Source: Antedon mediterranea
Lineage: Eukaryota; Animalia; Echinodermata
NCBI RefSeq assembly: GCF_964355755.1
Contig: NC_092676.1
Coordinates: forward strand, 4,999,888 to 5,063,887
Reading direction: 5' to 3'
DNA: 64,000 nucleotides
The notes under the pieces: generated by a model
What the model saw: only the letters and a program-made list of their open reading frames with translations
What the model was told of the DNA's origin: nothing
Database searches by the model: none
Position numbers and translations under genes: made by a program
In this document: positions 10,622 through 46,385 of the stretch, one piece after another
Layout: each line of letters begins with the position of its first letter
Numbering within the stretch: the first letter of the stretch is position 1

Positions 10622-12452
10622 TCACGACCTCCAAAAATACAAATCTTGCGACAGTTTTCTTTGAAAATTTTCAAACCATTTCTGAATGACATCGGTTGGA
10701 ATAAATGTTGCGTTCGGCTGTGGTACCATTTGGCCTTGCGTTATTGCAAATGAAGACGCATAATTGAAAAAACTCTCAAGCATTTTTTGGCTGAACTCTC
10801 GAAAGGACTCCACCTTGGAAGCCTAGTGTATAAAGAAAAACATTTTTTTTTTAAGTAAAACAATATTAGGCATGCTGGGTAATTTGTAGAGGGGTTGTTT
10901 TCATTTTTTAAAAAGGGTTTATGAAAATAAATGCTCTGCTGTATCAAATATTCTGCAAGTTGGACTTAGGCAAAAAGCCCATTTCTCAACTCCACCATAC
11001 AGGCCTTAGATTGTAGGTCAAACGTAAGCTTGGAGGACGACTACATGACCATGTACAGTTGAAAATACTTGAGCCCCAATTTCCTGCTTTTTACACTTTT
11101 AAGGACCACGTGACATCCATATTGTGTATTTGAGTACAGTAGACACAATCCTGGTTTCAATTCTTAAGATCAAATCTAGTGTCCTGGGGTCAAATCCAGG
11201 GTCATCCTGGGATAAAATCCAGGGTCATCCTGGGTTCAAATCCAGGGTGCTGGGATAAAATCCAGGGTCCTGGGAATAAATCCATGGTGCTGGGTTCATA
11301 TCTAGGGTTAAAATCGGTTGCATGTTTGTTGAAATATTAGTACTGTGCACTGCTCTACCTGTGTGTTAACGGCTGGGGTTCGTTGTGATATTTCATTCAT
11401 ATTCTCAACAGAGATCCCAATTTGGGCTTCTGTCATTGGTCCACTCATTAAGTTTGCTCCGAAACCACCAACTGCAGAAGTTTCTATAAAAAAAATATGA
11501 ACAATTAAATATATATATATATGATACGGCAATATGTTAAAGAAGGCGTAAGTTTGTTTCATTGCCTCGTCCTTCAGATGGGACCACGCACGCTCGTTCT
11601 GTTTGTGCATAATAACATTTAATTAGAACTACTAGTACCTGGTTTAGCTTTACAGATCTTAAATATAGCGCTTGGTTTATCATTTGAGATGTGGCCCAAG
11701 TACTGCCATGATAACCCAGATGTCGTTGGCCAACCGAAGTAAACAGCGCCACCAAGTCCATCTGGAAACGGCACCGTGCCAAGCATAAAAATCACAACGT
11801 GGCCTATGTTGTCTGTATCAACCAGATTGAAAATAAAGTGCGTCTCGTCTACTTGTTGTGGTTCCCCTTGAACCTGCAAGTATAAATCCTGTAACTGTAT
11901 ATTTTATGCATTATGTTTACACGTCATAATCCAGCTCGCAATAGGACACACTGATCCAACACGCAATAATTAATAAGATAAGTTAAAGTCATTAATAATT
12001 AATTATCCAAGCAAACAAGATTTTTAGTTGTTTTTAAAAACTAAACAACAGCCCCCCCCCCCCCCCCCTTCATCAGGAACAGCCTATCAAAGTTTAAAAA
12101 AATGGCAGGATATGATATGTCATAACTAAAAACAGTGTGCTTTTTCTTGGGGTAGCATAATCCCTTGAATGAAATATTCTAGAGTATTCACCATAACTCC
12201 CTACTCTGGCATCCCTCTGATCCAGGTATACCGACCGGTGCTAGGCCTATTATTACTATTAGGCCTAGGCTATATTAGTTTAGCCCAGCCTAGCTACTTC
12301 TAAGTTCTAGGCCTAAGAAGTAGTAGAGTACTAAAACTAGGCCTAGGCTAGGATAAAAAAGAATGAATGAATCATTGGTTTAATAGTCTATCAACACACG
12401 CTAATTTAAATCGTATACTTACTAAGCGCCCTGCTACTAAACATCCAAACAT
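10622..12452 (-). CDS. HIKESHI: Hikeshi (OPI10 family, Hsp70 nuclear import carrier), 4 exons
   Basis: Exons 12452-12423 (MFGCLVAGRL), 11873-11639 (VQGEPQQVDETHF..HVVIFMLGTVPFPDGLGGAVYF..WQYLGHISNDKPSAIFKI), 11483-11359 (AQIGISVE), 10822-10622 (QKMLESFFNYASSF..QKWFENFQRKL..FWRS*). All GT-AG and in phase. Confidence 0.96.
11180..11310. repeat. ~20-bp minisatellite in Hikeshi intron
   Basis: About six imperfect units of TCCTGGG(T/A)T(C/A)AAATCCAGGG. Confidence 0.8.
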
Positions 12453-14754: not shown

Positions 14755-15565
14755 GGGCCTGTTTCTGCTGCAACTGCTCAAAATACGGTATAAAAATACG
14801 GTATAAAATACGGTATTTTTTATACCGTATTTTTTAGTACCCCGTTTCTGCTAACAATACTTCTTGGGTGGTCGTGTTAAATTTCATCTTTTTTACCCAA
14901 ATTGCCATTCATTTATTTGATCGATAATTAAAGGAAGTTTTACGTCTCACTTTCAACAGCCTAGCCCTAGTGATAGAGATGTTGTGAGAGCACAGAAAAC
15001 ATCGTAATGGGGACAATTAATTCGTTCCCTCCCCGAGTTATTGTATTTTGCAATGTTGTACTGCTTTCGCAGGCTCTTCAGCTTTGAGTTTACTTGCTTT
15101 GGAGACAAGTCTATTCCATACTCCTGCTTTATTTTTTTAGAAATGTCTTTATAAATGTGGTTGTCCCTTTTATTACCTTTTAGTTGGCCAGACATTTTAG
15201 CTTCCCCACACAAATTTATTTAGTAAAACTGTGACGTCTTCGCTCCACATTTTCGCCGAATATATATATACACGTGTGTAAAACAGCTGACAGAGACAGA
15301 AAATCAAAACACGAATGTTGACCTTTTGTCATGTAAAAAAAAAATACGGTATTTTTTATTGGTAGCAGAAACGGGTACAAAAAATACGGTATAAATTTGT
15401 AAATACCGTATTTTATCCACAAATTTTGTGGGGAAAATACGGTATACAAAATACGGTATATTTTTTATGAGCGCAGTTTCTGCTGCCAAAAATATACCGT
15501 ATATATACGGTATTCAAAAAATACCGTATAATATACGGTATTTAGTTGGCAGCAGAAACAGGGCC
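14755..15565 (-). mobile_element. PIF/Harbinger deletion derivative with Myb/SANT-like ORF remnant
   Basis: TIRs GG(G/C)CCTGTTTCTGCTGC(C)AACT, 3-bp TSD ATT, subterminal AAATACGGTA repeats. The internal minus-strand remnant QLKGNKRDNHIYKDISKKI..SPKQVNSKLKSLRKQY..NSGRERINCPHYD is typical of Harbinger Myb/SANT proteins. Confidence 0.82.
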
Positions 15566-16741: not shown

Positions 16742-17058
16742 CTTAAACATATATACAATTGTGTATGAGGATAATGAATGTCGCTGCCCAAACATTATAT
16801 TTCCTCAGGAATCCCCATCCAATCCATCTCAGAACCAATTGCCATTACGATTATCCGGAACCAGTAGCATCATCAAGCCTTGCTTTCTTTTCGTTTTTAT
16901 ACATTTCATATTCCGTTGAGATTTCCCTGTCATTTCTTACTGGACACGAATGTCTTGAAGTAACACACTGCAATTACAATAAACCAAATGCTGTTAAATG
17001 CAATAAAATGGTAATAAATGACATATCAGCCTGTCAGTGACTTCAGAGGCAGTGCAAT
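16742..17058 (-). pseudogene. Decayed 7TM remnant (ECL2-TM5-TM6-TM7) of a GRL101/RXFP-type LGR GPCR
   Basis: Minus strand reads IALPLKSLTG*YVIYYHFIAFNSIWFIVIAVCYFKTFVSSKK*, then across frameshifts CYWFRIIVMAIGSEMDWMGIPEEI/VWAATFII/YTI. These match the family motifs CLxLPL..GWxYS..FxxxN..CY, CWxPI, YxWxAxF and LYT. Stop at 17028-17026; the NSxxNP motif is deleted. Confidence 0.8.
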
Positions 17059-18762: not shown

Positions 18763-18883
18763 TTATTTTTCTTCAACGAAATATATGAAAATCAATACTT
18801 CTCTTGTTTCTACATCTTCACATGGAGGTTCACACTTTCTAATATCTCCAACGAGACAACACAGTCTTGAACAATCTGATTGC
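18763..18883 (-). CDS. Hinge exon, terminating early
   Basis: Strong acceptor TTTTTCTCTCATAG, then QSDCSRLCCLVGDIRKCEPPCEDVETREVLIFIYFVEEK*. Matches the xDxxxxCC..CxP..CED hinge of GRL101/RXFP receptors. Confidence 0.72.
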
Positions 18884-21800
18884 CTATGAGAGAAAAACCA
18901 AACACACAGCAAATGAATGTGAATGATTTTAGTTGCATTTTAACAAATTTTAACAATTGAAGGAAATTTATTAATATTAATAATTTATTTATAGTTGTTT
19001 TGCGTGCTTGCTGCTCTTCGATCATAAAGATGATGAGTACAAGTTTAGAAAATTCAAAGATTTTGAAGGTACAATACCGAATTTATTGCTCAAGAGAGTT
19101 TATACAAGGGAGGTGTTTATTCGCAATGATGTTCTATGGGGAGAGTTTATTCGAGGGAGACGTTTATTCAAAGCCGAGCGTTTATTCGAATAAATGTGGT
19201 AATTGATACTTTCTGATAAATTCTATTCAGAATATCACGATTATTATGTGTAGTCTCATAATAATTACACAAAGAATAAGAACATACTATGAACTGTAAC
19301 ATTTAATTGGAATTACTATATATTAATTTTAATGTTGATTTTAAATTGAACATAAACTAACATTTAAATTATTAATGTAGATTATTTGACAGCTTCCTAA
19401 AATTAAAAACCGAAAATTCAATTAAAAAAATTGAAACTGGTTAAACAACAGCGCCAACATTTTTTTTAAAAAGGTTTAGCAGCTGAAATTTTTTATAGCA
19501 AGTTACCTCCGACGTGATGCGAGTCAGAACATACCCTTAGACGTAAAGTTCACCGAAACATTATATGATAAATTAGTGTATAGAACGCCGATGAATAATA
19601 CACATTAATGAAATTAAAGGACCAATCAAAACTTAAACCAAGAGACACTTAAGACAATTGACCTGAATGCAGTAGTACGAATTAAATGAAATTCAAATTA
19701 TTAAATATTGATTTTCCTTTGAAAAATAATAACAGTAACATTATGTATGCACACCTGTCATACTTACAATTCGACTAAGTTGGTTAATTCTTCAAAAGTT
19801 TTATCTTCGTAAAACCGTAATCTGTTCCCATCTAAACGTCTAAATGATAATATTCAACGATGATTAACCATAGTAAATTTTGAAAATAGTAACATTTTGA
19901 AATAAAGGCTATGTAATATTCCATGAGTATAGGTTGTATAGGATGTGAATAACCAGAGGCTCATGTGAAATAATGGGCGAAGTCAGAATGAAAATTGGAA
20001 TGAATTTAATCAACGACTAATGTCATAAATGTTTTTTTTTTTATTTATTTATACGTAACCATTCCAGTGTTGCAAAAACCAAATACACACATACACATAC
20101 AAGTTTCTCGTTCAATTCAAGTTGCATTTATATTTATACTGAATCTTACAGCAAATAACTAACTTTGTATCCTATAATTTTTTTTTTTTAATTTTTTTTT
20201 TATTCCGGTATATAAAACATTACAAAAAGCAGAACAAGTCTGAAATTATTGTAGTACATATAATAAAAAATTTACATTACAGATAAAAAATACAAAACAA
20301 TTTACAATATGCATAAAAAAAATAAATATACTGTACATTAATCATTAAAATTTATCCAATAGAGCAAAAATGCATAATGACATGTTTAACCTAACAGTAT
20401 CAATTATTTTCCAAATAGCTACTTCATAGTATGTTGGGGAATATTTAAATCGTAATAAAATCACATAGTGTTAACTTACAAATATGTAAGTGATGAAGCA
20501 AAAGAAGAAAATGCATCTGGTTCTATGGTAGTTATAGCGTTGTTGTATAAATACCTGTTAAGATAATCAATATTTATTTTATTATTACTACTGTTTTTTT
20601 AAAGCAATATTTGTTTTCTCTAGTGCATATCATACAGTGTGTATGTTATAGTAACTATCACTATCAAGTGATAATAGCATAATACTAATACTTTCATGTG
20701 AATTTTCTTCAATGTTAAATTGTTATCTAATTAATCTCTTTAGGCCTAATTAAAGACAAAAATGAATGATTAAGTCTAAACGATTTAAACAAAATGAATG
20801 TATTGATTACAATGCATAATATTCATTGTTATGAATTTAATTTTACATTTAAATATACATCAACATAATTTGATGGTTCAGTAAAATTCATCAAAATGCT
20901 ACATAGTTACATAAAAATGTGTGTGGTTGCAATGACATCATTATATTGTTTTCAGTGTGTTCCTATGCACTCATGACATTTATATAATCATAAGCTTTAA
21001 TTTGATGTCAGACATAAAATAGAAATGACTTTTAAGATTTAAAAAAAAATTACGTAATACCTGACTATATAATAGTATGGCTTAAATGATGTCATTACAT
21101 TGTTAAAATACTATTTTTACATATGCTCGTGTTGTTACACATGTCATAAGCTTTAATTTGATACCAAACTTTACATGTTCATTTTTTTTTTCATTTTTCA
21201 GAAAATTATGTAATGTATTTATATAATGGGTGTGGCTTAATTAATGGCATCTTTCAACTGTTCAAATTATATTTTACATAGTTCCGTGGTGTTTACATGT
21301 CATAAGCTTTAATTTAATACCAAACTTTCCATATTTATTTGATTTCTTGAATATTTCAACAAAGTTATGTAATATATAATGGGTGTGGCTTTGATAATGT
21401 CATTATATTGTGAAATTATATTTTCTCATTCTCATCTTACATGTCAAATTATAATTTGATACCAAACTTGACATACATTTTTAATATATATTTTTTTACA
21501 TAGCTACATATATATTAAAAGGGGCGTGGTCAAAATGAGTCATTAATTAGAAGAAGGTTTCCGTCAAGTTTCATGCTTTTGTCACGAAGTGCACAAAAAA
21601 ATTGCTCAGCAACCAACTAATATATATGTTAACTAAATCAGAGAGAGAAAAAAATAACTCTTTAAATGTTGTTTTAAAACATTTACTTAGTCAACCACTG
21701 ACAGCGTAGAGCAGCGTTCCGAAACCTTTTTTGACCACGACCCCAATGATTATATTTTGGGAGTTCTAGCGACCCACCAAGTTTTTGAGCCACAAGCGAT

Positions 21801-24800
21801 TGTATATAAAATTCATAATAATGCGACCTCGGCAAAACGATCGTATCTACTTTCTTTCCGGTGAACACCGCGACCGACGATTTAAACATTTTGTGTTCAA
21901 ATGTAAACGTCATGGGGAGTTCGCTATAAAATGGTGAGGGAGCCCTCCCCTGGCCTGGCTATTGAAAAAGAACATTTTAATTCGAAAACCAGTTTTGTCA
22001 TAGTACTGTTGTCAGACATTTATTATTCCTAATACATACCGGAAGTGCAAGTGCGCAGAGTTAATGATTATAATTATTAGAAATCAAATGTCAATTGGCA
22101 ATTACTCTGATTGTTGGGTTGTACCTTTAGATTTGCAAAAAGCATTTGACACAGTTGACCATGATATATTGCTCGAAAAACTAAAGGATTTGGATTGGAC
22201 CAATAGATTGGTTCCAATCATATCTTAAGAATAGGCAACAATTAGTATATAAAGGTAAAATCAAGCCACTTGGAATTTCTCATATTGTGGCTCAAGGAAG
22301 CATAATTGGGGCTCTATTATTTCTATGCTATGCTAACGATATGAAAATAAGTGTAAATTGTAATTTTATTTTAAACGCTGATGACAGCGTTCTTTTAGTA
22401 TCTGGTAAGAACCCATATAGCTTCAAGACTGAGTTCAGAATTGTCAACCTGTAGTGAATGACTCATTGACAACAAGTTATCCCTCCATATGGGAAAGACT
22501 CAGGCCATGGTGTTTGGACCCAAACATAAAATGAAAATGGTCAGGGATTTTAAAGTATATTGTGATGAAATCCAAGACAGTGTCAACAATCCAATACTGG
22601 TTCTCGGTCAAGTTGTCCTTCAATGTATTTAATGAAATAATAATTAAATATCTTTAAATTTTAATCTTAAAAATGGTTATTTGGTTACTGTATAAATGCC
22701 TTCTGTATGTATTGATCACATTATGAATTGATACAATGCATAATATTCAATGTTTATAAATTTTTATTTAAATTTATTTTAAAACTATCAAAATACTCAT
22801 AAACACAATTCCTATAGAAAATTATAAATATTTAATATCATCCTAATTATTCATTTTATAAATATCTTAATTTTTTATTGGTCATTATTTAAAAAAGAGA
22901 TTTATTTATTAATTAGGATGATATTAAATATTTATAATTTTCTATAGGAATTGTGTTTATGAGTATTTTGATAGTTTTAAAATAAATTTAAATAAAAATT
23001 TATAAACATTGGATATTATGCATTGTATCAATTCATAATGTGATCAATACATACAATGGCTGGCAATGTACTTATTTGGTTACTGTACAAATCCCTTCAA
23101 AGTAAAAACAATGTACAGTAACAATTACAATATTCAAGCTGTTTGATATGTAAATGCTGATGAGTATACTTTAATTAGGCTACAGTAAAATAAACTATTA
23201 AAATATGAAAATGTTATTGTCATGAAAACAATTTATATAGAAAATGTTAAATATTTGTATTACTCTTGTTTTTCTTATTGTCACTTGTATATTTATAATT
23301 ATTTTTATATGAGAATGCTGAATATTCTCTATCAGCTTACTGTTTATGATGATATAGTAATTTTAAAGTCTCTTAAATGACCAATTGTAAAACTATTAAT
23401 ATCTTTAACCAATTCATCCTGATAAGTGCTTAAAGAATGAATAATTTATTATTTATTTAGAAAAAAGTTAAACATAGAAATTAATATTTAGTCCTTCAGT
23501 TTTGTCATTTCTGTCAATCTATCAAACACAAGGGTTGGCAATGCACTTATTTTGTTATGTTCTTCTAGGCTTATAGGTACAGTGATGTAGTGATGGGGTT
23601 GGGGTATAGAAACTGATCCCACGAAATGAAATTATTTCTGATATTTTAATCAATAGGTGCCAGTAATAATTATATATTCTTGATTTACATATTCTTAAAT
23701 ATATTTTTAAAATTCCAAGTTATAAATAGACTTGAAAGTGTTATTCTCAACATTTTGTTATCATCTTAATGTATTATTTTTTATATATTTACAGTATGTA
23801 TTGATCACATTTTGAAATTATACAATGCTTATTATTAATTATTATTTTATTATTTATTTTTAAAACAAATGAAACAAAGAAATAAATATGTGCAAAATAC
23901 TTACAGGTATTTCAATGCTGTCAATTTATCAAATACATTGGTTGGCAATGTACTTATTTTGTTATCCCTCAAATTCCTTCAAAGTAAAAACAATGTACAG
24001 TAACAATTACAATATTCAAGCTGTTTGATATGTCAACTTTTACTTTTCATATTCATTTTGATTTTTTTGTAAAGTCTTTCAGTCAATGATAGGGACATTA
24101 TCTACATAGTAAATACTGATGAGTATACTTTAATTAGGCAAACATAACTAATAAAATATGAAAAGTGATTTTTAAAATATTATGTATTGATCACCTTATT
24201 CAATGATACTATGCATAATATTCAATGTTATAAATTATTATATTATTTATTTTCAAGACAAATTAAACAAAGAATTAAAATACTCATGAACACAATTTCT
24301 ATTTTAAATATTTAGTATCATCTTAATGTATATAATAATAATTGTTAAATAAATCTCTTTTTTAAATAATGACCAATTAAAAATTAAGATTTTTATAAAA
24401 TGAATAATTAATATTGATAATTGTTAACATTTTACTAAACCTTTAAAAAAATAATTATATACATATACAGTATGTATTGATCACATTATGAAATTACACA
24501 ATGCATAATATTCATTATTATTTTTATTTTATTATTTATTTTTAAAACAAATTAAACAAAGAAATAAAACAAATTAAACATGACCAAATACTTACAGTGT
24601 TGTCAGTGCTGTCAATCTATCAAATACATTGGCTGGCAATGTACTTATTTGGTTATTGTACAAAGACCTTAAAAGTAAAAACAATGTACAGTAACAATTA
24701 CAATATTCAAACTGTTTGATATGTAAATGCTGATGAGTATACTTTAATTAGGCTACAGTAAAATAAACTATTAAAATAAGAAAATGTTATTGTCATGAAA

Positions 24801-27800
24801 ACAATTTATATAGAAAATTTTAAATATTTGTATATTTTTATTACTCTTGTTTTTCTTATTGTCACTTGTATATTTTTAATTATTTTTATATGAGAATGCT
24901 GAATATTCTCTATCAGCTTACTGTTTATGATGATATAGTAATTTTAAAATCTCTTAAATGACCAATTGTAAAACTAGTAATATCTTTAACCAATTCATCC
25001 TGATAAGTGCTTAAAGAATGAATAATTTATTATTTATTTAGAAAAAAAGTTAAACATAGAAATTAATATTTAGGCCTACAGTTTTGTCAGTGCTGTCAAA
25101 CTATCAAATACATGGGTTGGCCATGCACTTATTTTGTTATGTTGTAGGCTTATAGGTACAGTGATGTAGTGATGGGGTTGGGGTATAGAAACTGACTCCA
25201 CGAAATGAAATTATTTCTGATATTTTAATCAATAGGTGCCACTAATAATTATATATTCTTGATTTACATATTCTTAAATATATTTTTAAAATTCCAAGTT
25301 ATAAATAGACTTGAAAGTGTTATTCTCAACATTTTGTTATCATCTTAATGTATTATTTTTTATACATTTACAGTATGTATTGATCACATTTTGAAATTAT
25401 ACAATGCATAATATTCAATGTTATAAATTATTATATTATTTATTTTCAAGACAAATTAAACAAACAATTGAAATACTCATGAACACAATTTCTATTTTAA
25501 ATAATTAGTATCATCTTAATGTATATAATAATAATTATTAAATAAATCTCTTTTTTAAATAATGACCAATTAAAAATTAAGATTTTTATAAAATGAATAA
25601 TTAATATTGATAATTGTTAACATTTTACTAAACCTTTAAAAAAATAATTTATATACATATACAGCATGTATTGATCACATTTTGAAATTATACAATTTAT
25701 AATATTCATTATTATTTTTATTTTATTATTTATTTTTAAAACAAATTAAACATGACCAAATACTTACAGTCTTGTCAGTGCTGTCAATCTATCAAATACA
25801 TTGGCTGGCAATGTACTTATTTGGTTCCTGCTCAAATCCCTTTAAAGTAAAAACAATGTACACAAAGAATTACAATATTCAAGCTGTTTGATATGTAAAT
25901 GCTGATGAGTATACTTTAATTAGGCTACAGTAAAATAAACTATTAAAATAAGAAAATGTTATTGTCATGAAAACAATTTATATAGAAAATTTTAAATATT
26001 TGTATATTTTAATTACTCTTGTTTTTCTTATTGTCACTTGTATATTTATAATTATTTTTATATGAGAATGCTGAATATTCTCTATCAGCTTACTGTTTAT
26101 GATGATATAGTAATTTTAAAGTCTCTTAAATGACCAATTGTAAAACTATTAATATCTTTAACCAATTCATCCTGATAAGTGCTTAAAGAATGAATAATTT
26201 ATTATTTATTTAGAAAAAAGTTAAACATAGAAATTAATATTTAGTCCTTCGGTTTTGTCATTTCTGTCAAACTATCTAACACAAGGGTTGGCAATGCACT
26301 TATTTTGTTATGTTCTAGGCTTATACTGTAGGTACAGCGATGTAGTGATGGGGTTGGGGTATAGAAACTGACTTCACGGAATGAAATTATTTCTGATATT
26401 TTAATCAATAGGTGCCACTAATAATTATATATTCTTGATTTACATATTCTTAAATATATTTTTAAAATTCCAAGTTATAAATAGACTTGAAAGTGTTATT
26501 CTCAACATTTTGTTATCATCTTAATGTATTATTTTTTATACATTTATTGTATGTATTGATCACATTTTGAAATTATACAATGCATAATATTCAATGTTAT
26601 AAATTATTATATTATTTATTTTCAAGACAAATTAAACAAAGAATTAAAATACTCATGAACACAATTTCTATTTTAAATATTTAGTATCATCTTAATGTAT
26701 ATAATAATAATTGTTAAATAAATCTCTTTTTTAAATAATGACCAATTAAAAATTAAGATTTTTATAAAATGAATAATTAATATTGATAATTGTTAACATT
26801 TTACTAAACCTTTAAACAAATAATTTATATACATATACATTATGTATTGATCACATTATAAAATTATACAATGCATAATATTCATTATTATTTTTATTTT
26901 ATTATTTATCTTTAAAACAAATTAAACATGACCAAATACTTACAGGTATGTCAATGCTGTCAATCTATCAAATACATTGGCTGGCAATGTACGTATTTGG
27001 TTATTGTACAACCACCTTCAAAGTAAAAACAATGTACAGTAACAATTACAATATTCAAGCTGTTTGATGTGTAAATGCTGATGAGTATACTTTAATTAGG
27101 CTACAGTAAAATAAACTATTAAAATAAGAAAATGTTATTGTCATGAAAACAATTTATATAGACAATTTTAAATATTTGTATATTTGTATTACTCTTGTTT
27201 TTCTTATTGTCACTTGTATATTTTTAATTATTTTTATATGAGAATGCTGAATATTTTCTATCAGCTGACTGTTTATGATGATATAGTAATTTTAAAGTCT
27301 CTTAAATGACCAATCGTAAAACTATTAATATCTTTAACCAATTCATCCTGATAAGTGCTTAAAGAATGAATAATTTATTATTTATTTAGAAAAAAGTTAA
27401 ACATAGAAATTAATATTTAGTCCTTCAGTTTTGTCATTTCTGTCAAGCTATCAAACACAAGGGTTGGCAATGCACTTATTTTGTTATGTTCTTCTAGGCT
27501 TATAGGTACAGCGATGTAGTGATGGGGTTGGGGTATAGAAACTGACTTCACGGAATGAAATTATTTCTGATATTTTAATCAATAGGTGCCACTAATAATT
27601 ACATATTCTTGATTTACATATTCTTAAATATATTTTTAAAATTCCAAGTTATAAATAGACTTGAAAGTGTTATTCTCAACATTTTGTTATCATCTTAATG
27701 TATTATTTTTTATACATTTATTGTATGTATTGATCACATTTTGAAATTATACAATGCATAATATTCAATGTTATAAATTATTATATTATTTATTTTCAAG

Positions 27801-30800
27801 ACAAATTAAACAAAGAATTAAAATACTCATGAACACAATTTCTATTTTAAATATTTAGTATCATCTTAATGTATATAATAATAATTATTAAATAAATCTC
27901 TTTTTTAAATAATGACCAATTAAAAATTAAGATTTTTATAAAATGAATAATTAATATTGATAATTGTTAACATTCTACTAAACCTTTAAAAAAATAATTT
28001 ATATACATATACAGTATGTATTGATCACATTATGAAATTACACAATGCATAATATTCATTATTATTTTTATTTTATTATTTATTTTTAAAGCAAATTAAA
28101 CATGACCAAATACTTACAGATATGTCAATGCTGTCAATCTATCAAATACATTGGCTGGCAATGTACTTATTTGGTTATTGTTCAAATCCCTTCAAAGTAA
28201 AAACAATGTACAGTAACAATTACAATATTTAAGCTGTTTGATATGTAAATGCTGATGAGTATACTTTAATTAGGCTACAGTAAGATAAACTATTAAAATA
28301 AGAAAATGTTATTGTCATGAAAACAATTTATATAGAAAATATTAAATATTTGTATATTTTAATTACTCTTGTTTTTCTTATTGTCACTTGTATATTTATA
28401 ATTATTTTTATATGAGAATGCTGAATATTCTCTATCAGCTTACTGTTTATGATGATATAGTAATTTTAAAGTCTCTTGAATGACCAATTGTAAAACTATT
28501 ATATCTTTAACCAATTCATCCTGATAAGTGCTTATATAATGAATAATTTATTATTTACTTAGAAAAAGTTAAACATAGAAATTAATATTTAGTCCTTCAG
28601 TTTTGTCATTTCTGTCAATCTATCAAACACAAGGGTTGGCAATGCACTTATTTTGTTATGTTCTTCTAGGCTTATAGGTACAGTGATGTAGTGATGGGGT
28701 TGGGGTATAGAAACTGACTTCACGGAATGAAATTATTTCTGATATTTTAATCAATAGCTGCCACTAATAATTATATATTCTTGATTTACATATTCCTAAA
28801 TATATTTTTAAAATTCCAAGTTATAAATAGACTTGAAAGTATTATTCTCAACATTTTGTTATCATCTTAATGTATTATTTTTAATACATTTACAGTATGT
28901 ATTGATCACATTTTGAAATTATACAATGCATAATATTCATTGTTATAAATTATTGTATTATTTATTTTCAAGACAAATTAAACAAAGAATTAAAATACTC
29001 ATGAACACAATTTCTATTTTAAATATTTAGTATCATCTTAATGTATATAATAATAATTATTAAATAAATCTCTTTTTTAAATAATGACCAATTAAAAATT
29101 AAGATTTTTATAAAATGAATAATTAATATTGATAATTGTTAACATTCTACTAAACCTTTAAAAAAATAATTTATATACATATACAGTATGTATTGATCAC
29201 ATTATGAAATTACACAATGCATAATATTCATTATTATTTTTATTTTATTATTTATTTTTAAAGCAAATTAAACATGACCAAATACTTACAGATATGTCAA
29301 TGCTGTCAATCTATCAAATACATTGGCTGGCAATGTACTTATTTGGTTATTGTTCAAATCCCTTCAAAGTAAAAACAATGTACAGTAACAATTACAATAT
29401 TTAAGCTGTTTGATATGTAAATGCTGATGAGTATACTTTAATTAGGCTACAGTAAGATAAACTATTAAAATAAGAAAATGTTATTGTCATGAAAACAATT
29501 TATATAGAAAATATTAAATATTTGTATATTTTAATTACTCTTGTTTTTCTTATTGTCACTTGTATATTTATAATTATTTTTATATGAGAATGCTGAATAT
29601 TCTCTATCAGCTTACTGTTTATGATGATATAGTAATTTTAAAGTCTCTTGAATGACCAATTGTAAAACTATTATATCTTTAACCAATTCATCCTGATAAG
29701 TGCTTATATAATGAATAATTTATTATTTACTTAGAAAAAGTTAAACATAGAAATTAATATTTAGTCCTTCAGTTTTGTCATTTCTGTCAATCTATCAAAC
29801 ACAAGGGTTGGCAATGCACTTATTTTGTTATGTTCTTCTAGGCTTATAGGTACAGTGATGTAGTGATGGGGTTGGGGTATAGAAACTGACTTCACGGAAT
29901 GAAATTATTTCTGATATTTTAATCAATAGCTGCCACTAATAATTATATATTCTTGATTTACATATTCCTAAATATATTTTTAAAATTCCAAGTTATAAAT
30001 AGACTTGAAAGTATTATTCTCAACATTTTGTTATCATCTTAATGTATTATTTTTAATACATTTACAGTATGTATTGATCACATTTTGAAATTATACAATG
30101 CATAATATTCATTGTTATAAATTATTGTATTATTTATTTTCAAGACAAATTAAACAAAGAATTAAAATACTCATGAACACAATTTCTATTTTAAATATTT
30201 AGTATCATCTTAATGTATATAATAATAATTATTAAATAAATCTCTTTTTTAAATAATGACCAATTAAAAATTAAGATTTTTATAAAATGAATAATTAATA
30301 TTGATAATTGTTAACATTTTACTAAACCTTTAAAAAAATAATTTATATACATATACAGTATGTATTGATCACATTATGAAATTACACAATGCATAATATT
30401 CATTATTATTTTTATTTTATTATTTATTTTTAAAGCAAATTAAACATGACCAAATACTTACAGATATGTCAATGCTGTCAATCTATCAAATACATTGGCT
30501 GGCAATGTACTTATTTGGTTACTGTACAAATACCTTAAAAGTAAAAACAATGTACAGTAACAATTACAATATTTAAGCTGTTTGATATGTAAATGCTGAT
30601 GAGTATACTTTAATTAGGCTACAGTAAGATAAACTATTAAAATAAGAAAATGTTATTGTCATGAAAACAATTTATATAGAAAATATTAAATATTTGTATA
30701 TTTTAATTACTCTTGTTTTTCTTATTGTCACTTGTATATTTATAATTATTTTTATATGAGAATGCTGAATATTCTCTATCAGCTTACTGTTTATGATGAT

Positions 30801-32316
30801 ATAGTAATTTTAAAGTCTCTTGAATGACCAATTGTAAAACTATTATATCTTTAACCAATTCATCCTGATAAGTGCTTATATAATGAATAATTTATTATTT
30901 ACTTAGAAAAAGTTAAACATAGAAATTAATATTTAGTCCTTCAGTTTTGTCAGTGCTGTCAATCTATCAAATACATTGGCTGGCAATGCACTTATTTTGT
31001 TACGTTCTAGGCTTATAGGTACAGTGATGTATTGATGGGGTTGGGGTATAGAAACTGACTTCACGGAATGAAATTAGTTCTGATATTTTAATCAATAGGT
31101 GCCAGTAATAATTATATATATAATCTTGATTTACATATTCTTAAATATATTTTTAAAATTCCAAGTTATAAATAGACTTACAAAATGCCAGTGTTATTCT
31201 CCACATTTTGTTATCATCTTAATGTATTTATTAAAATAATATTTTAAATCTCTTTAAATATAAACTATCAATATTAGTATCTTTTAAAAGAATAATTTAT
31301 TGATAATGGTTTAGTATTTACTAATTCTTTTAAAATGTATACTGTATGATTGTATTGATTACTGGCAATGTACTTATTTGGTTCCTGCTCAAATCCATTT
31401 AAAGTAAATACAATGTACACAAAGAATTGAAATATTCAAGCTGTTTGATATGTAAATGCTGATGAGTATACTTTAATTAGGCTACAGTAAAATAAACTAT
31501 TAAAATAAGAAAGTTGTATTGTAATGAAAACAATTTTTATAGCAAATTTTAAAATATTTGTATATTTTTATTTTTCTTATACATTTTGAATAATTTTGAT
31601 GTGAGAATGCTGAATATTCACTATCATCTTATAAATGTTTATGATGATAATTAATAATAGTAACTTTAAAGTCTCTTAAATGACCAATTGTAAAAGTATT
31701 AATATCTTTAACCAATTCATCCTGATAAAAAATGAATAATTTATTATTTATTTAGAAAAAAGTTAAACATAGAAATTAATATTTAGGCCTTCAGTTTTGT
31801 CAGTGCTGTCAATCTATCAAACACAAGGGTTGGCAATGCACTTATTTCATTATTCTTCTTTCTTGGAGATCCAAGAAACATTTATTATATATGGCCTTTG
31901 GCCTAAATAATATACAATGTAATACAATATTAAATAAACATCAGTTGTTATATTATGTTAGGCTTATAGGTACAGTGATGTAGTGATGGGGTTGGGGTAT
32001 AGAAACTGACCCACCAAGAAATTACTTCTGATATTTTAATCAATAGGTGCCACTAAAAATCATATAGGCCTATATAATCTTGATTTTCATATTTTTAAAT
32101 ATATTTTTAAAATTCCAAGTTATAAATAAACTTATAGCAATGAAATGGTCGCCTCACAATAACCCTATACTTACAATTCTGCTATTGGAACATGATCATT
32201 ATACTTGTTGATAGTTGAGATGTTATTAATACTCCATGGATGATTACATGTCACTCGTTGACCTTCAGTATACCACCCAGTCCCACATATGCAGTTGGCT
32301 GGACATTCTGCTTCTC
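18763..32316 (-). CDS. LRR ectodomain gene derived from a GRL101/RXFP-like receptor: LRRNT + 9 LRR exons + hinge, then stop (5' exon not located)
   Basis: Eleven exons with canonical splice sites: 32316-32175, 30533-30462, 29361-29290, 28189-28118, 27015-26944, 25839-25768, 24667-24596, 23976-23905, 20554-20480, 19839-19768, 18883-18763. They total 914 nt and join in one frame with no stop until TAA at 18765-18763. Confidence 0.8.
19768..19839 (-). CDS. LRR exon, 72 nt, phase 2-2
   Basis: tttag|A RLDGNRLRFYEDKTFEELTNLVEL |gtaagt. Confidence 0.85.
20480..20554 (-). CDS. LRR exon, 75 nt, phase 2-2
   Basis: aacag|G YLYNNAITTIEPDAFSSFASSLTYL |gtaagt. Confidence 0.87.
20960..21620. mobile_element. 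DNA-transposon remnant with ~120-150 bp internal repeats
   Basis: Four recurrences of CATAAGCTTTAATTTGATACCAAAC-like and GGGTGTGGC motifs. Family not determined. Confidence 0.45.
22075..22580 (+). mobile_element. Degenerate LINE reverse-transcriptase fragment (L2/CR1-like)
   Basis: LDLQKAFDTVDHDILLEKL, WFQSYLKNRQQ, QGSIIGALLFLCYANDM, ADDSVLL, NKLSLHMGKT, with frameshifts and stops. Confidence 0.85.
22704..23055. repeat. Fold-back inverted repeat at array edge
   Basis: Arms 22704-22849 and 22910-23055 (~146 bp, near-perfect by eye) with a 60-bp loop. Both arms and loop are array intron sequence. Confidence 0.9.
23905..23976 (-). CDS. Array LRR exon A1 (72 nt)
   Basis: tgaag|G NLRDNKISTLPTNVFDKLTALKYL |gtaagt. 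Confidence 0.9.
24596..24667 (-). CDS. Array LRR exon A2 (72 nt)
   Basis: ttaag|G SLYNNQISTLPANVFDRLTALTTL |gtaagt. Confidence 0.9.
25768..25839 (-). CDS. Array LRR exon A3 (72 nt)
   Basis: taaag|G DLSRNQISTLPANVFDRLTALTRL |gtaagt. Confidence 0.9.
26944..27015 (-). CDS. Array LRR exon A4 (72 nt)
   Basis: tgaag|G WLYNNQIRTLPANVFDRLTALTYL |gtaagt. Confidence 0.9.
28118..28189 (-). CDS. Array LRR exon A5 (72 nt)
   Basis: tgaag|G DLNNNQISTLPANVFDRLTALTYL |gtaagt. Confidence 0.9.
29290..29361 (-). CDS. Array LRR exon A6 (72 nt, identical to A5)
   Basis: tgaag|G DLNNNQISTLPANVFDRLTALTYL |gtaagt. Confidence 0.88.
30462..30533 (-). CDS. Array LRR exon A7 (72 nt)
   Basis: ttaag|G YLYSNQISTLPANVFDRLTALTYL |gtaagt. 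Confidence 0.9.
32175..32316 (-). CDS. LRRNT (N-terminal cysteine cap) exon, phase 1-2
   Basis: tttacag|GA EAECPANCICGTGWYTEGQRVTCNHPWSINNISTINKYNDHVPIAEL |gtaagt, a CPxxCxC...VxC cap. Confidence 0.88.
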
Positions 32317-32538
32317 CTGTAAAGACATAGACTTATACTCTAAGGCCTACGTATAGCATATAGCAATAATAGCGTATATCTGGTAAGAATAATCACATAC
32401 CGGTAGGCCTAAACGTTGTGCAAAATTGGGAGAGAGGGGTAAACTCTTGTTTTCAATAACAATGCATTATTTCAAATGCATTATTAACATTTATATATAT
32501 ATATATAGCTAGCTGTTCCAGTAGAAGTAGGACTGTCC

Positions 32539-34030
32539 AGGCCCGTAACCAGGGGGGGATCGGGGGGATCGTACGATCCCCCCGCTGAACAGCGAGTTCC
32601 GCTTGGCCTCCCACTTTTTTTTTGCTGGGCATACCATGGATTAAAGAATATTCTATTCTTTAATCCATGGGCATACTAACACAACACGACGATTGTTCAC
32701 TACAGGCCTAGTCAAGCCTTAATAAATTTAATTAATATATATATATATATATATATTTTAACTAAAATATAAAAACCTAACACTAAAATTTACATGATAA
32801 GTTCTATTTGATAACTGCTGAACATCGTGGTTCTGGAGCTAGCGAGCTGTACACAGAGCATAGTTGTTGTTTGGTTGACATAACAGGGTATTCCCCTACA
32901 CAGGTCTCCGCGTGCGTGTGACGTGTCCAGCCAGCTGCTTGATAGAGAAAGCATGCAGCTCACAACGCAAGTGCAAGATGCAATGGTTGAGTGAATTCAG
33001 GGATCATCTTAATTCCATGGTTTTTACCTAAACACCACCACATGATGGTGAATATGCCTGTTAAAGTCTCAATGATACGATCCCTAATGAACCATGTTGT
33101 TGCTAGGAGGCTTGAAAGGAGGAGTACCCTAGCCTAATTTCGGTCGGCAAGAGAATGCCGTCCTTATTAAGTACAATAAAAACAAAGGCTAGGACTGTAT
33201 AGTGCCTATGAAAATTATCCCGTTAGGGCTAAATTTTATTAAAACGTATTACTATTAAAATATTAACAATGCTGCAGCATTTCATGACCCTTGTTGTTTT
33301 ATTTGCTTTCCCGTCGATGATTCTCATAAAACACATCGCGATGACATCATGACAAAAGAGGTGTTTTGTTTTTTTCAAAATCACTAAATATAATGTAATC
33401 GAGCTGGACCGCTAATTTTTAAACGATCGTTTAAACCAGGTCGTTGAATTGAATATGCCGTGATTTTAATTGTCAAAAACATGACCGTCAGTCGATGGCT
33501 CGGAGTTTCGATAAATCTCGCGTCGCATGTGTTGCGTGGTGAAAACACTCTCAGCAAGTTTGCTTCATTAATATTCATGAGACTCTGTGACGACCCGCTT
33601 TAACGTGACGTCATTTTACTTTAGCTGCATGCGAAGTATAGTGACCGCAATCGACCCGGCGCGCGTGTAAAAAAATAATACCGGCCTAGGTATTAAAAGA
33701 ACAGGCAAGTTGTTAGCTTGCTTTTGGTACCCTAGGTAAGTATCAGCTGCATATTCCACATGTCGTAATTTGCGAGCTTTAGAGTGTTTGGTAAATGACA
33801 TTATGAGATGTTTGTAAATCGTTTTAAACGACTTACAATGCGCTAGAACGCCAAAATTTCCAGGGGCCGTCGGCCCCTGGATCCCTTGGCGGCCCCCTGG
33901 CCCCCAGCCAATGTTTGCTCGCTTCGCTCGCAAAGCTACGCCACCCCTATTTCAATATCCTGGATCCGCCCCTGGGTTCCACTAAACAACTTAACGATCC
34001 ACCCCGCCGTCAAACCTGGTTACGGCCCTG
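32539..34030. mobile_element. Non-autonomous TIR element (hAT-like), apparent 5-bp TSD
   Basis: Ends CAGGCCCGTAACCAGG / CCTGGTTACGGCCCTG, flanked on both sides by CTGTC. Confidence 0.7.
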
Positions 34031-34894
34031 CTGTCACGATAAATATGGTCCGGGGCCAAATCGGTCCGGCCGGACCAGTTTTGGCTCTAAAGTTGTGGCC
34101 AAAAGCAGTCCGCCACTGTCAAAATGGGTCCGGGCTTTTCTTCTGTCGATTTTAATTGCATTACTAGGCCCATGATGCTGTTTTAAGTTGTTTATGGCTA
34201 GAAAAATATCCCATGATATATATTAGTAAGTTATCTTGTCGTATAAATACTATAAATAAATGTATATTATCTAAAAACATGACTTTTAGGTGTTCACTCA
34301 TATTTCAGCCTGCCACACACTCACATGAACGGGTATGAGACGCTGATATTGCCAGCAACTAGATTTTTATTTATGATTGGCCCTTTTTCCTTCCTCAACC
34401 TATATTGGATAGTTGTTTTATAATAATTGTATTGAATTTATATATTGATTGATTAACTATAAATAATTAATAAATTAAATTGTTTTTAACATCATGGGGA
34501 AACGAAGATGTTAAAAAAGAAAAATGGAAAACAGGCAGAGATACATTGTATACAATAAGCAATTAGTACTGATGAGTTACTACTAATAATGATAATAAGA
34601 AAACAGGCTTAATTTATAATATTAAAATAACAAATAAAACCCTGTAGTTTTCAATATAAATGACTAATCATGGCCTTTTTTTTAATGGTATATACATTAT
34701 GACTCATTTTGCGCACCATTTATTATTTGTAAGACCGGACCTTATTTGGCGGCCAAAAACAGGCCGGACCAGTTTTGGCGGCCAAAATTGGTCCAGCCGG
34801 ACAGGTTTTGGCAGCCATAAATGGTCCCCCGGACTGATTTTGGCAGCCGAAACTGGTCCGCCGGACTTGGCCCGGACTGATTTTGGTGTGACAG
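34031..34894. mobile_element. TIR element with GC-rich subterminal repeats
   Basis: Ends CTGTCAC / GTGACAG, with repeated CCGGACCAGTTTTGGC motifs at both ends and an AT-rich interior. Confidence 0.7.
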
Positions 34895-35389
34895 GGCCTA
34901 ATTGCAATCTACATTCATCACAGAGCTTGCGCAATTTCAAATTGCGCAAGATCTGACGTTTAGACATAAAAATGACTAGGCTAGAGTAGTATAGCCGCCC
35001 GCCGCGCCCGCCCGGCGGAACACCACCGCGCCCGCCGGAACACCACCGCGCCCGCCGGAACACTACCGCTTCGTTTTCCTTCGTCGAGTCTTCGACGGTA
35101 TGCTAACAATAACAATATTTTCACTACTAAAATAAGGAAATGCGATATTTTCTTTAATTTTGAATCATTCTTAGAAATTACTATAAAAATATGGGTGTTC
35201 ATGATTTCACAATCTGTCGAAAAATCTTGCGCAATTTGATACGAATTGCTTGCCCAATTTGAAACACATTGCGAAAATTGCGCAAGGAATTGTTTGCGCA
35301 AATCGTTTAAATTGTGCATAACACATGCATTATTGCCAGCGATCTAACTAAACAATTCAGGGACCGAAATGTGTAATGTGGTTAATTTC

Positions 35390-37790
35390 AGGCAAAGTTT
35401 ACCGACGTGTACTGCGTATCGATGTACGCTTCAGCAAAAGTGTACAAATTATTTTCGAGATCTATTGTTCGTGACGTATGTTCACCAATTTTAAAATTTA
35501 CGATTAACCCTCTGGAGTAGGCCTACCTCAATTATTACTGCATGTAGGCCTACATTCCTAAACAATAAGAATGCCATTTTTGTTTAGCCAATATTTTATT
35601 ATTGTCGAAATAAACTGATTTCTCCGACGGAAATTGGTCTACGCTTGCGGACGCATTCCCCTCCAAATAAAAGACAAAAAGGCCATTTTTAGGCCTCTCG
35701 GACTGATATTTTTAAGTTAAAAGTATAAGTGTAATTTTTTAAACCTGCAGCTCTATTTTTCACAATTTTCTTCTCAGCCCAAACAACTTTAGAGCTGGTC
35801 ATGGATACTTATAATTTCGTTTAATTTATCAATAGGGTCTATATAATAAAGTTTTAATTGAATTGAATTGAATTGAATATATAAGTGCAATTTCCAGGGA
35901 CCTATAGCAATTCTATTTTTCACAATTTACTTAGATCCACCCAACCATCCATGGTGGGTCCTGTAGACTTATAATTTCGTTTCATTTATCAATAGAGGTC
36001 TATATAAGTGCATTTTCCTGAACAGCTATTCTATTTTTCACAATTGTCTTAGCACAGCCCTAATGATAGGGCTGGTCCTGGAGACAATTATATATTTTGT
36101 TTCATATTTCAGTATAATTTACGGGGACCTAGCAACTCTATTTCTCTCTAAATAATTGAGTTAGATAATTAGTTATTTTTTGGTAAAAATCATGTTCAAT
36201 TCAATATATTTTGTCACTGTCAATACAAATAAAATGTTACTGTTGATACACGGTTTCGTTAACTTTAAAATAAAATCGACAAATTCATCATATCCCCTTA
36301 GGTCGCACTTATGACTGGGTCTAGGGTAAGTATTAGTGATGCTGATTTCAAGATCGATTAATATTCTTTGAAAATAGAAAAGTATCAGCAGTATAAAATA
36401 TTACAGCATTTTTATTGACAAATTAAACGTGCATTTCAACAATAAATGAATTAAAATGTAGACGCATTCCATCGAGTTTTTAGCCCTCTATTATGGATGC
36501 TTTTTTTGAGCTCCATAGAAACGAAAATATTGAAAGTTTTGAGTATGCGAAAGTGTGCAAGAAACACGTCTGTAAAATCACCAATTTTTATTTATGAATA
36601 ATAAATAATAGTATTTATTTGTTACTTTTTATGTGAATCTTTTTCATAAAAGTACTTATGAGGCCTAATTCTAAAGTGTTGTATTCAGGATAAAGTTAGT
36701 TGAATTAATTTGGAGTCAAAATACAATAATGCAGGTGCAAAAGGGAAACACCCACTGAAACCAACACAATGGAGTAAATATATATCAACAAACAAACCGT
36801 CCAGTTTGTTTGTTGTGAAACAAAGGTAAATATTTATTCAACGGGCGAAAATATTGTGAGTTTATTTCTGTTTGGGATAATTATTTAATTAAATTTATTG
36901 TAAAAAGCATTAATAAATGAAACCTACTATGTTTAAAATTGTGTATAGATAAACAATTATTGTTTTTAAGCTGTCGTATATCTTAGAATTTGTAATCTTA
37001 GGTTATTGGGTCTTAGGTTTTGTGATCTTAGGTCTTACGGGGTCTTAGCTTTCGTGATCTTTCGTGACACCCTGCAAAAATTGTAAATGCGCGCCTTGGG
37101 CGGATCTGTAAGAAAATTGTGAAAAATAGAGCTGCTAGGTTGCAATATACATACAATTGATACTATGAAACGAAATTACAAGTCTACAGAACCAGACAAC
37201 CGTGGTTGGGATGGAGCTAAGAAAATTTAGAAAAATAGAGTTGGAGGTCCCGGAAATTGGACTTCGAAACATTAAACAAAATATATAGCCTAAGTCCATA
37301 TCCTGGTTGTGACTGAGGTAAGAAATTTTTGAAAAATAGAGCTGTTAGGTCCTGGAAAATGCACTTATTGTACTTCGAAATATGAAATGAAATATATAAG
37401 TACCTATGCTTAAAGGTGGTCCGTTTTGCCTTTATTTGGGTGGGGGCAGGGGTGCGTCCGCAAGCGTAGACCCTTTTCAGTCGGGGAAATCAGTTTATAC
37501 CTCAAAAGTGTATGCGTGCGTACCATCTGGACTTCCGAGTGGTGAAACGTTCATGACACAGGACATTGACAATTTAATAACTTAGCTATAAAAAGATGTT
37601 GGCTAAGCGAAAATGGCATGTTTATTTTTTGTTTAGTAATGTATGAAATATTTATTTTATGTGCCCAACGGTACAGAAGGTAATTACTTGTAAATTAAAA
37701 AAATTGGTGAACATACGAACAATTAACATAATTCGATTTTGCTGTAGCGTACGTCGACACACAGTAACTACACGTAACAGTCGGTAAACT
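35390..37790. mobile_element. Old fold-back-like element with long degenerate inverted arms
   Basis: 35390-36150 and 37100-37790 are inverted relatives (shared GGTCTACGCTTGCGGACGCA, CGTATGTTCACCAATTTT and ~120-bp subrepeats containing GCTCTATTTTTCACAATT). Confidence 0.65.
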
Positions 37791-38231
37791 TCTTTAGTCC
37801 CTGGATGGAACATGATATCACGCATCTGGACCCAACGTTGAACGACGATTCGTACAAAGGGACATCGCTGGCAATAATGAATGCATTTAAAGTGCATAAT
37901 AGCCCTCTGACGTACTCACGGTCAATGGAACGTCGCGGTTTTCTAGCGCTGAAGCTACGAAGTGAACGCCAACGATTTTTACTGTATATTATATTCCCGA
38001 CAAAAAGTAGCCTACCCGTGTTCCCCGACGTGGGCAGGGGAATATGCTCCCCGACGAGGGGGCTGCTGCCCCCTGTCTCCCCAGCCTAGTGATGCTCGCA
38101 TAGCCCCACCCCGCACCCGCTTCGGAAAAATCTTGGCGCCACCGCTGGCTGAGTCAGACATGTCTACCTAGCTGTGACGAGTAAATGCAATATATCTAGT
38201 TGTGTGCCAGCCCAATTAATAACAATTAAAA

Positions 38232-38651
38232 CTAATTAGCAAACACATTAAGTAAAGCAATCATACCGAGAACGGTGACAGGATTGGTCTTGGTAACCGG
38301 ATTGGTAACACGATCAACAGAATCGGTAACATCATGATCGGTAACCGGATTGGTAACACGATCAACAGAATCGGTAAAATCATGATCGGTAACAGGATTG
38401 GTCGCGGTAATCGGATTGGTAACACGATCAACAGAATCGGTTACAGTACGATCAATAGAATCGGTAATATCATGATCGGCAACTGGTTTGGTCTCGGTAA
38501 CCGGAAAGGTGACAGGATCGATAACGGAATCTGTGACATGATCAGTAACGTTAACGTCAGTGAAGCTGATACTAAAACAGCGAGAAAATAACAATGCAAT
38601 CAATATAGCAGCAATAGAAAATAGTAGTATAATTCCTCTTAAGATGAACAT
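38232..38651 (-). CDS. Hypothetical 139-aa protein: signal-peptide-like N-terminus, T/V/D/P-rich repeats, short hydrophobic C-terminus
   Basis: ATG at 38651. MFILRGIILLFSIAAILIALLF, then repeated VTDSVDRVTNPVT, ending VLGMIALLNVFAN*. No homolog recognised. Confidence 0.4.
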   Translation of the reverse strand: MFILRGIILLFSIAAILIALLFSRCFSISFTDVNVTDHVTDSVIDPVTFPVTETKPVADHDITDSIDRTVTDSVDRVTNPITATNPVTDHDFTDSVDRVTNPVTDHDVTDSVDRVTNPVTKTNPVTVLGMIALLNVFAN

Positions 38652-39069
38652 CTTAACTTAATTCACTCGTAAACTTTACTTCTGCGAGTTCGCTCAGCAT
38701 ATGAACAATATACTTTGTTACTATCTTCATTTACCTGTAGATATTGCTTTTAATTATTTAGATGATGCATTAATACAATTAAGAATTGTTAATATTTAAT
38801 ACTATATTGATATTCATGTAATAAGCACAAGATTTACAAAACACATGGACTATCAACTAGGATTTTTGAAAGGGAATACTAAACTGAACTCTACAGTTCA
38901 ACTGACGACGTCATGACGTCATGTCATACATACAACCAACTCCATCCATGTGCTATTACTAAAAACCCGGACCATACTAAATAGTTAATTTCATTATTAA
39001 TCAGAGAAGAAGTTTTTTTAATTTAAAAACAAAATTTACAGTGTACACACCGTACCCTTTTAACGTAAT

Positions 39070-39345
39070 TCATTGCATATTGCTGTTTACATGTTATTGC
39101 ATATTACTGTTTACATGTTATTGCGTATTACTGTATACATGTTATTGCATATTACTGTATACATGTTATTGCATATTACTGTATACATGTTATTGCATAT
39201 TACTGTATACATGTTATTGCATATTACTGTATACATGTTATTGCATATTACTGTATACATGTTATTGCATATTACTGTATACATGTTATTGCATATTACT
39301 GTATACATCTTATTGCATATTACTGTATACATGTTATTGCACACT
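39070..39345. repeat. 24-bp tandem minisatellite
   Basis: About 11 near-identical units of ATGTTATTGCATATTACTGTATAC. Confidence 0.95.
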
Positions 39346-39374
39346 GTAAATGTGGAATACAGTGTAAGTTTTGG

Positions 39375-46117: not shown

Positions 46118-46385
46118 TACGGAGCGCCGTCCGACACACTCTGTCCGAAAAACTATTGGTTGTAAGACAAACAAAATGGTTTGTAAAAGACAAATCATTG
46201 ATTGTAAAAATAGTTTGTTTATAAAGACAAACTATATGGTTTGAAAAAGACAAACAATGATTTGTTTTTTACAAACCATTATCTTTTACAAACCATTTTG
46301 TTTGTCTTTTATATTGTCTATATCTACATATGTCTATGTTTTGTATGACAGAATAATTATGTAGTGTGTCGGACGGCGCCCCGTA
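46118..46385. mobile_element. IS3EU-like MITE
   Basis: TIRs TACGG(A/G)GCGCCGTCCGACACACT, with imperfect 6-bp TSD ATGAAC/ATTAAC. Confidence 0.72.

Follow-up and report, generated by a model that had tools for sequence, protein, structure and literature searches.

The 64,000-nucleotide stretch of DNA analysed here (hereafter the window) covers positions 4,999,888 to 5,063,887 of contig NC_092676.1 in the assembly GCF_964355755.1 of the crinoid Antedon mediterranea, and carries on its minus strand a gene whose central part is a tandem array of seven intact leucine-rich repeat (LRR) exons. The introns of the array are nearly alike, whereas the exons differ from one another mainly in the codons for the presumed binding face of the repeat. 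Upstream of the array lie an LRRNT exon and a candidate signal/stalk exon, and downstream of it two divergent LRR exons and a Cys-rich hinge exon that runs into a stop codon. In this article, we describe the array and its variation, the remainder of the gene together with its likely ancestry and its wider exon family, and the reading that we favour, namely that of a germline-diversified recognition protein.

The tandem array of leucine-rich repeat exons

Each of the seven exons is 72 nt long, stands in phase 2, and is flanked by AG and GTAAGT. In transcript order, they are located on the minus strand at 30462-30533 (A1), 29290-29361 (A2), 28118-28189 (A3), 26944-27015 (A4), 25768-25839 (A5), 24596-24667 (A6, the reference unit for the comparison with sequencing runs) and 23905-23976 (A7, the most diverged of the seven), and their concave strips read Y-L-Y-S-N, D-L-N-N-N, D-L-N-N-N, W-L-Y-N-N, D-L-S-R-N, S-L-Y-N-N and N-L-R-D-N, respectively, A3 being identical to A2. 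The tandem units measure 1,172-1,176 nt and share 95-99.7% identity, the last one being shortened, while the full introns span 1,100-1,104 nt (n = 5), and the sequence of the array has no match elsewhere in the 64-kb window. An earlier note on this DNA had placed seven 72-nt exons here, and all of them were recovered at their minus-strand places with the splice sites and phase 2 checked, as were the residues it listed at positions 1, 3, 4 and 23 (28 of 28 cells correct). Its description of near-identical introns of about 1.1 kb holds for the five full introns, but not for the last intron, which is 619 nt long and partly homologous. The array is also larger than that note described, by eight pseudo-exons and two truncated copies.

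Every tandem unit consists of one live exon and one dead LRR copy of a second type, termed B. Eight such intronic pseudo-exons lie within 23498..31864 on the minus strand, at about 31793-31864, 30943-31014, 29771-29842, 28599-28670, 27427-27498, 26251-26322, 25080-25151 and 23498-23569. Seven of them lack a GT donor, and the one at 25080 has a GT donor but no AG at 72 nt. An AG does occur 69 nt upstream of that donor (25080-25148, minus strand), so that in-frame splicing as a defective repeat may be possible. The pseudo-exons vary at the scaffold codons 10, 13, 15, 20 and 21, as would be expected for decaying copies, and mosaics of the A and B types are found among both the pseudo-exons (3/8) and the live exons (3/7). 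Two truncated A-type copies border the array on the same strand, one at 31362..31396 (D-L-S-R-N) with a dead acceptor, and the other at 23056..23094 (D-L-Y-S-N) with an intact acceptor, the latter being cut by a hairpin. This hairpin, an inverted repeat of intron-derived sequence of about 350 nt (22704..23055, 91.6% self-complementary), closes the array, and a further exon fragment lies by it at about 22678-22699. Beside this end of the array there is also a decayed reverse transcriptase, a fragment of a long interspersed nuclear element (LINE), at 22185-22451 on the plus strand (Pfam E 0.0076).

Distribution of variation across the repeat units

Six codons of the repeat (x2, x3, x5, x7, x8 and x10 of the LRR consensus) were picked a priori as those presumably facing the concave surface. 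In the five exons matching the full introns, 10 of 18 sites in these codons are variable, with a nucleotide diversity (pi) of 0.27, as compared with 2 of 51 sites in the remaining 17 codons and with 66 of 1,097 gap-free columns (pi 0.029) in the five full introns. The contrast between concave codons and introns gives a Fisher probability of 3e-8 if sites are assumed to be independent, which overstates it because the changes come in tracts. Across all seven exons, the proportion of variable non-synonymous sites (pN) reaches 0.40 in the six concave codons versus 0.022 in the other 17, and that of synonymous sites (pS) is 0.14 versus 0.04, with very few sites behind the latter pair of values. A tract-robust alternative, counting haplotypes in 16-nt windows, places five distinct haplotypes among six units at two spots only, the 5' ends of the exon and of the pseudo-exon; among 52 non-overlapping intron windows, a single one has five.

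Within codons 1, 3 and 4, all nine sites are variable, while the three silent sites interleaved with them are invariant (Fisher 0.0045), and this argues against a regional mutation hotspot as well as against the wholesale import of old sequence. Between units 1 and 2, the youngest pair, there are 4 differences in 1,172 sites, and three of these are replacements at codons 1, 3 and 4. The four-gamete test is violated at 126 of the 300 informative site pairs, and together with the A/B mosaics this indicates that recombination and short gene conversion are at work. None of the 16 changes from the majority base is C>T or G>A, and 6 of 16 are so with the polarity reversed; hypermutation by a cytidine deaminase is unsupported by this spectrum. 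Apart from the exon itself, the intron site at -4 of the acceptor (24671 and its equivalents) is tri-allelic both in the window and in the sequencing runs, and has likely been carried along with codon 1.

The observation of the earlier note thus holds, and its interpretation is supported in part; the rest of the gene, with its likely receptor scaffold, lies outside its account. The variation that it described at the concave face is nearly all non-synonymous, divergence at the codons it named exceeds the intron background, and its proposals of exon duplication, of selection on solvent-exposed beta-strand residues and of diversification in the germline are supported, the selection by the excess of non-synonymous change at the concave codons.

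The rest of the gene, its ancestry and its family

The candidate first exon (38267..38651, minus strand) encodes a hydrophobic N-terminus, either a signal peptide or a signal anchor, followed by a stalk of repeats rich in Thr, Asp and Val, and ends in a phase-1 donor. It is the only signal-like exon in 32330-44000 that runs from ATG to a phase-1 GT, and it is in frame with the LRRNT exon at 32175..32316 (minus strand, phase 1 to 2), which encodes a putative N-terminal cap with four cysteines and the first short LRR (Pfam LRRNT E 0.074, short of the curated cut-off). A 24-nt tandem array of 97% identity lies at 39072-39341, and a Pro-rich open frame of 104 codons at 42296-42607 on the minus strand, upstream of the candidate first exon. 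On the other side of the array, the minus strand carries a divergent 75-nt LRR exon (20480..20554, Pfam LRR_8 E 0.0035) and the last LRR exon (19768..19839, Pfam LRR_8 E 0.086), both in phase 2, and then the hinge exon (18763..18883), which continues the last LRR in frame with a pattern of Cys-Cys, Cys-x-Pro and Cys-Glu-Asp and reads on to a TAA stop. An alternative reading of 18814-18883 as a phase-1 LRR was rejected, since the preceding donor is in phase 2. A Hikeshi-like exon (11640-11873, minus strand, Pfam E 3.6e-28) bounds the gene on its 3' side.

Joined by their coordinates, the 12 exons form one open frame of 432 codons. The product has a single hydrophobic segment, at its N-terminus (beyond residue 40, no 19-residue stretch exceeds a hydropathy of 0.72), and neither an LRRCT, nor a C-terminal stalk, nor a membrane anchor was found in it, the hinge-like exon being followed by the stop. 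It is therefore likely, as far as the predicted sequence allows, to be a secreted or N-terminally anchored binder without a signalling part of its own. Protein searches with the LRRNT exon yielded no true relatives, a weak blank given queries of 40-48 residues; a search with one LRR exon and its in-frame intron residues gave 15 candidates, none at E 0.001 for this short query; and one with the hinge exon, likewise short, returned six repetitive matches that were judged spurious.

The hinge points to a receptor ancestry. When it is compared by eye with a GRL101-like sequence of Amphiura, from the set of echinoderm hinge sequences in supplement 3 of PMC8286064, 10 of 21 residues are identical in an ungapped stretch, after which six residues are missing before Cys-Glu-Asp. 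Further downstream, at 16750..16990 on the minus strand, lies a frameshifted remnant resembling transmembrane helices 5 to 7 (TM5-TM7) of a GRL101-type G-protein-coupled receptor (GPCR), spread over three frames with stops. The hinge motif occurs once in the 64 kb and in none of 200 shuffles, and the TM5 and TM7 motifs occur once each, with 0.015 and 0.01 expected from 200 shuffles; all three stand on the right strand and in the right order, the motifs having been chosen after the match was seen. The hinge exon has no match in Pfam, PDB or Atlas, none of the 94 downstream open reading frames (ORFs) matched 7tm_1 in Pfam, and a pattern search of the minus strand of 32300-47900 found no LDLa-like pattern. 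Like the LGR type C2 or GRL101-like receptors described in PMC4079206 and PMC8286064, the gene thus has LRRs followed by a short Cys-rich hinge and remnants of TM5-TM7; unlike them, it shows no LDLa in that search, its hinge is six residues short, its seven-transmembrane (7TM) region is broken, and its LRRs are expanded and hypervariable. Hence, the gene is likely a derivative of an old hormone-type receptor of LGR type C (GRL101-like) with a long-dead 7TM region, and not a member of that family.

The exons also belong to a wider family. Ten sequencing runs contain part of the locus, none of which is recorded as RNA, and four of them (X1, X5, X8 and X10) were compared over one repeat unit of 591 bases around exon A6; X8 comes from organism A and was guessed to be RNA, while X10 comes from organism B and its kind is unrecorded. 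Both X8 and X10 are covered mainly on the exon and contain seven exon-to-exon joints that return by exactly 72 nt, whereas no such joints are listed for X1 and X5. The joint table has nine rows, the other two being intronic joints in X5, and X1 has one unresolved joint. Six of the seven exon joints represent variants not present in the window (YLRSN, DLSYN, YLTVN, DLRYN, ELDGN and GLWGN) with codon 2 unchanged as TTG, and the seventh is from a more distant LRR subfamily. In addition, a contig of X8 joins an A-type exon to the exon at 20480-20554 at the splice site, with 29 of 30 loose letters identical. On the 591 bases, X1 yields 444 contigs and X5 yields 421. Among the 40 variant rows listed out of 41, 26 concern the exon, and 17 of these lie in codons 1, 3 and 4. 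These codons are variable in all four runs, across both organisms, with alleles and paralogues inseparable in these counts. Taken together, the joints, the contig numbers and the variant rows indicate that the exon belongs to a large and transcribed family found in both organisms. The transcription assumed by the earlier note is accordingly borne out through the head-to-tail joints in X8 and X10, at the level of the family rather than of this exact copy. The depth of the exon core in X1 is about 270 times that of a single-copy intron marker, and X5 has one unbranched intron contig, which hints that the family may number tens to hundreds of exons and that organism B may have a shorter array, depth being a different quantity from copy number and not used as proof. 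At loose ends of the X8 and X10 runs, at 24621 and 24638, the exon core also occurs in contigs of more distant LRR subfamilies and of another terminal exon, a sign of possible further gene architectures in the family.

Several features of the window are separate from this gene. On the plus strand, exons at 740-7820 presumably encode a Greatwall/MASTL-like kinase, judging by their motifs; an SLC46A3-like transporter exon at 47972-49102 shares 99% identity with a protein of Antedon mediterranea; and an endonuclease-like ORF at 62963-64000, at the window end, is taken from its motifs to be a LINE fragment. A tandem array of a palindromic 21-nt unit (6037-6726) has long open frames on either strand. 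A Myb/SANT-like ORF on the minus strand (14956-15219, Pfam E 9.5e-13) is probably a transposon fragment.

Interpretation and comparison with known systems

We consider it probable, with moderate confidence, that the gene encodes a recognition protein that arose from a GRL101-type GPCR, by release of its ectodomain from the 7TM region, and was diversified in the germline, with microbial or parasite ligands as the most likely ones. As we see it, a 1.17-kb unit made of a live exon and a pseudo-exon was multiplied in tandem, which the array itself displays; unequal crossing-over and short gene conversion would then hold introns and scaffold 96-99% alike while swapping short tracts, in keeping with the observed mosaic pattern; and selection would favour or preserve differing residues at x3, x5, x7 and x8 of the LRR. 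A peak of divergence around selected sites is a pattern described in PMC3924837. The exons would be spliced head to tail, as seen for the family rather than for this exact copy, and the concave surface would thereby be built from strips that differ from one repeat to the next. The resulting 432-residue product may bind fast-changing non-self ligands, most likely the surfaces of microbes or parasites, and its repertoire would come from many germline members of the family and not from somatic rearrangement. Several points weigh against this reading. The RNA status of X8 and X10 is uncertain, and joints of this kind could also come from an intronless paralogue; the first exon is joined to the gene by frame alone and could be a non-coding minisatellite; the GPCR ancestry is drawn from a match made by eye and from post hoc motifs, with Pfam, PDB, Atlas and phmmer blank; and a 3' end lying in a broken GPCR also looks like that of a pseudogene. 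Furthermore, pS is itself raised (0.14) at the concave codons, where selection was judged by counting tests, and haplotypes are as numerous at the 5' end of the pseudo-exon as at that of the live exon, so that some of the signal could appear even where the copy itself is not selected.

Among other explanations, the locus may be a dying or dead copy within a set of full-length LRR-GPCRs, with variable codons that short conversion brought in from functional paralogues under selection. The broken 7TM region, the eight pseudo-exons and two truncated copies, the large genomic pool of exons and the variable 5' end of the pseudo-exon would all fit such a copy, which we nonetheless regard as rather unlikely, given that nine LRR exons, the LRRNT exon and the splice sites are intact in one 432-codon frame, and that X8 joins an A-type exon to the exon at 20480-20554. 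The several frameshifts imply that the 7TM region decayed long before the 3-4% divergence of the introns arose, yet the LRR frame has stayed intact. It seems distinctly unlikely to us that a germline-diversified protein of this kind serves the recognition of self and non-self, of gametes or of chemical cues instead of pathogens. Fungal het genes do evolve alike in allorecognition (PMC1805685), and a GRL101-like gene is enriched in the sensory tentacles of a starfish (PMC6267866), but a product without a signalling domain would fit an opsonin or a decoy better than a sensory receptor.

Somatic diversification in the manner of variable lymphocyte receptors (VLRs), with the binding-face codons overwritten in immune cells from pseudo-exons and paralogous exons serving as donor cassettes, appears very improbable. 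The module is nearest to VLRs among solved structures, each unit holds an LRR copy that cannot be spliced, the A/B mosaics represent short-tract exchange, and six variants from outside the window occur in RNA-like runs; against this, the germline gene is complete, the pseudo-exons offer few useful alternatives at the binding codons, the 16 changes include no C>T or G>A from the majority base (six with the polarity reversed), and the many genomic copies in the DNA runs account readily for the extra variants. A broader proposal, that crinoids possess an anticipatory LRR system in which a large, GPCR-derived and VLR-shaped family has its binding codons rewritten by conversion from pseudo-exons and paralogues, and also somatically in coelomocytes, is quite improbable in our judgement; if true, it would amount to a VLR-like repertoire in an invertebrate deuterostome. 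As for a neutral hotspot beside the splice acceptor or an artefact of assembly, the tri-allelic intron site at -4 and one exact repeat of 1,363 nt might suggest either, and we give them almost no credence; both are largely refuted by the invariant silent sites within the variable stretch, by TTG at codon 2 in six of the seven spliced joints, and by variation at the same codons in four runs of two organisms.

The favoured reading, of a germline-diversified recognition protein, can be set beside several known systems. In the search with the repeat profile, 25 of 49 PDB matches are named VLR and eight more are repebodies, in line with the convergence on VLR modules put forward earlier. Agnathan VLRs (PMC12264053) share the 24-residue module with the same consensus and a variable concave surface, and their LRRNT cap has a putative counterpart in the four-cysteine exon; unlike the crinoid gene, which is split by introns and ends in an LGR-type hinge, they end in an LRRCT, a stalk and an anchor, and their germline genes are incomplete, contain non-coding intervening sequence, and are assembled somatically from donor cassettes in lymphocyte-like cells. 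With a complete germline frame and neither an LRRCT nor a C-terminal anchor, the crinoid gene is not a VLR. The amphioxus protein Bf66946 is, similarly, a germline LRR solenoid of an invertebrate deuterostome and binds bacteria by its concave face, but it has a true LRRCT, and no homogenised exon array is reported for it in the accessible part of PMC4731796. No published account of the crinoid exon family was found in a literature search lying mostly outside subscription journals, and the family goes unmentioned in the available portions of PMC11863921, PMC5100051, PMC6408891 and PMC13428168, which serve as background only.

The closest working analogues appear to be the brown-algal ROCO genes and the fungal het WD40 repeats, for both of which the evolutionary pattern itself has already been published. 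In ROCO genes, proposed to be immune receptors, each LRR occupies one 72-bp phase-2 exon, and the four selected concave sites have the same spacing as the crinoid ones (14, 16, 18, 19 versus 23, 1, 3, 4; n, n+2, n+4, n+5), as given in PMC11378527, selection in the crinoid exons being judged by counting tests. Alternative splicing of LRR exons is a further trait of the ROCO arrays, and the crinoid exons were compared with sequencing runs in the form of short contigs. In contrast, ROCO proteins are intracellular LRR-ROC-COR GTPases of stramenopiles, whereas the crinoid protein is predicted to be extracellular with a putative LRRNT cap and a likely LGR scaffold, its gene holding intronic pseudo-exons, and no ROC-COR GTPase domain was found among its 94 downstream ORFs. 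The NWD genes het-d and het-e of Podospora likewise have repeats that evolve in concert, both inside one family member and across members, together with diversifying selection on four surface residues per repeat, in a different and intracellular fold whose repeats do not stand one per exon, and their function has been shown genetically (PMC1805685). The crinoid family bears on the existence of diversified LRR binders of the lamprey VLR kind in invertebrate deuterostomes, as a concrete, apparently large example that is expressed as a family, with VLR-shaped modules, a strong signal at the binding face and an unexpected likely parent in the ectodomain of a GRL101-type GPCR. It makes germline versus somatic diversification directly testable at one locus, and suggests that the solution known from ROCO exons and het repeats may have arisen again in animals.

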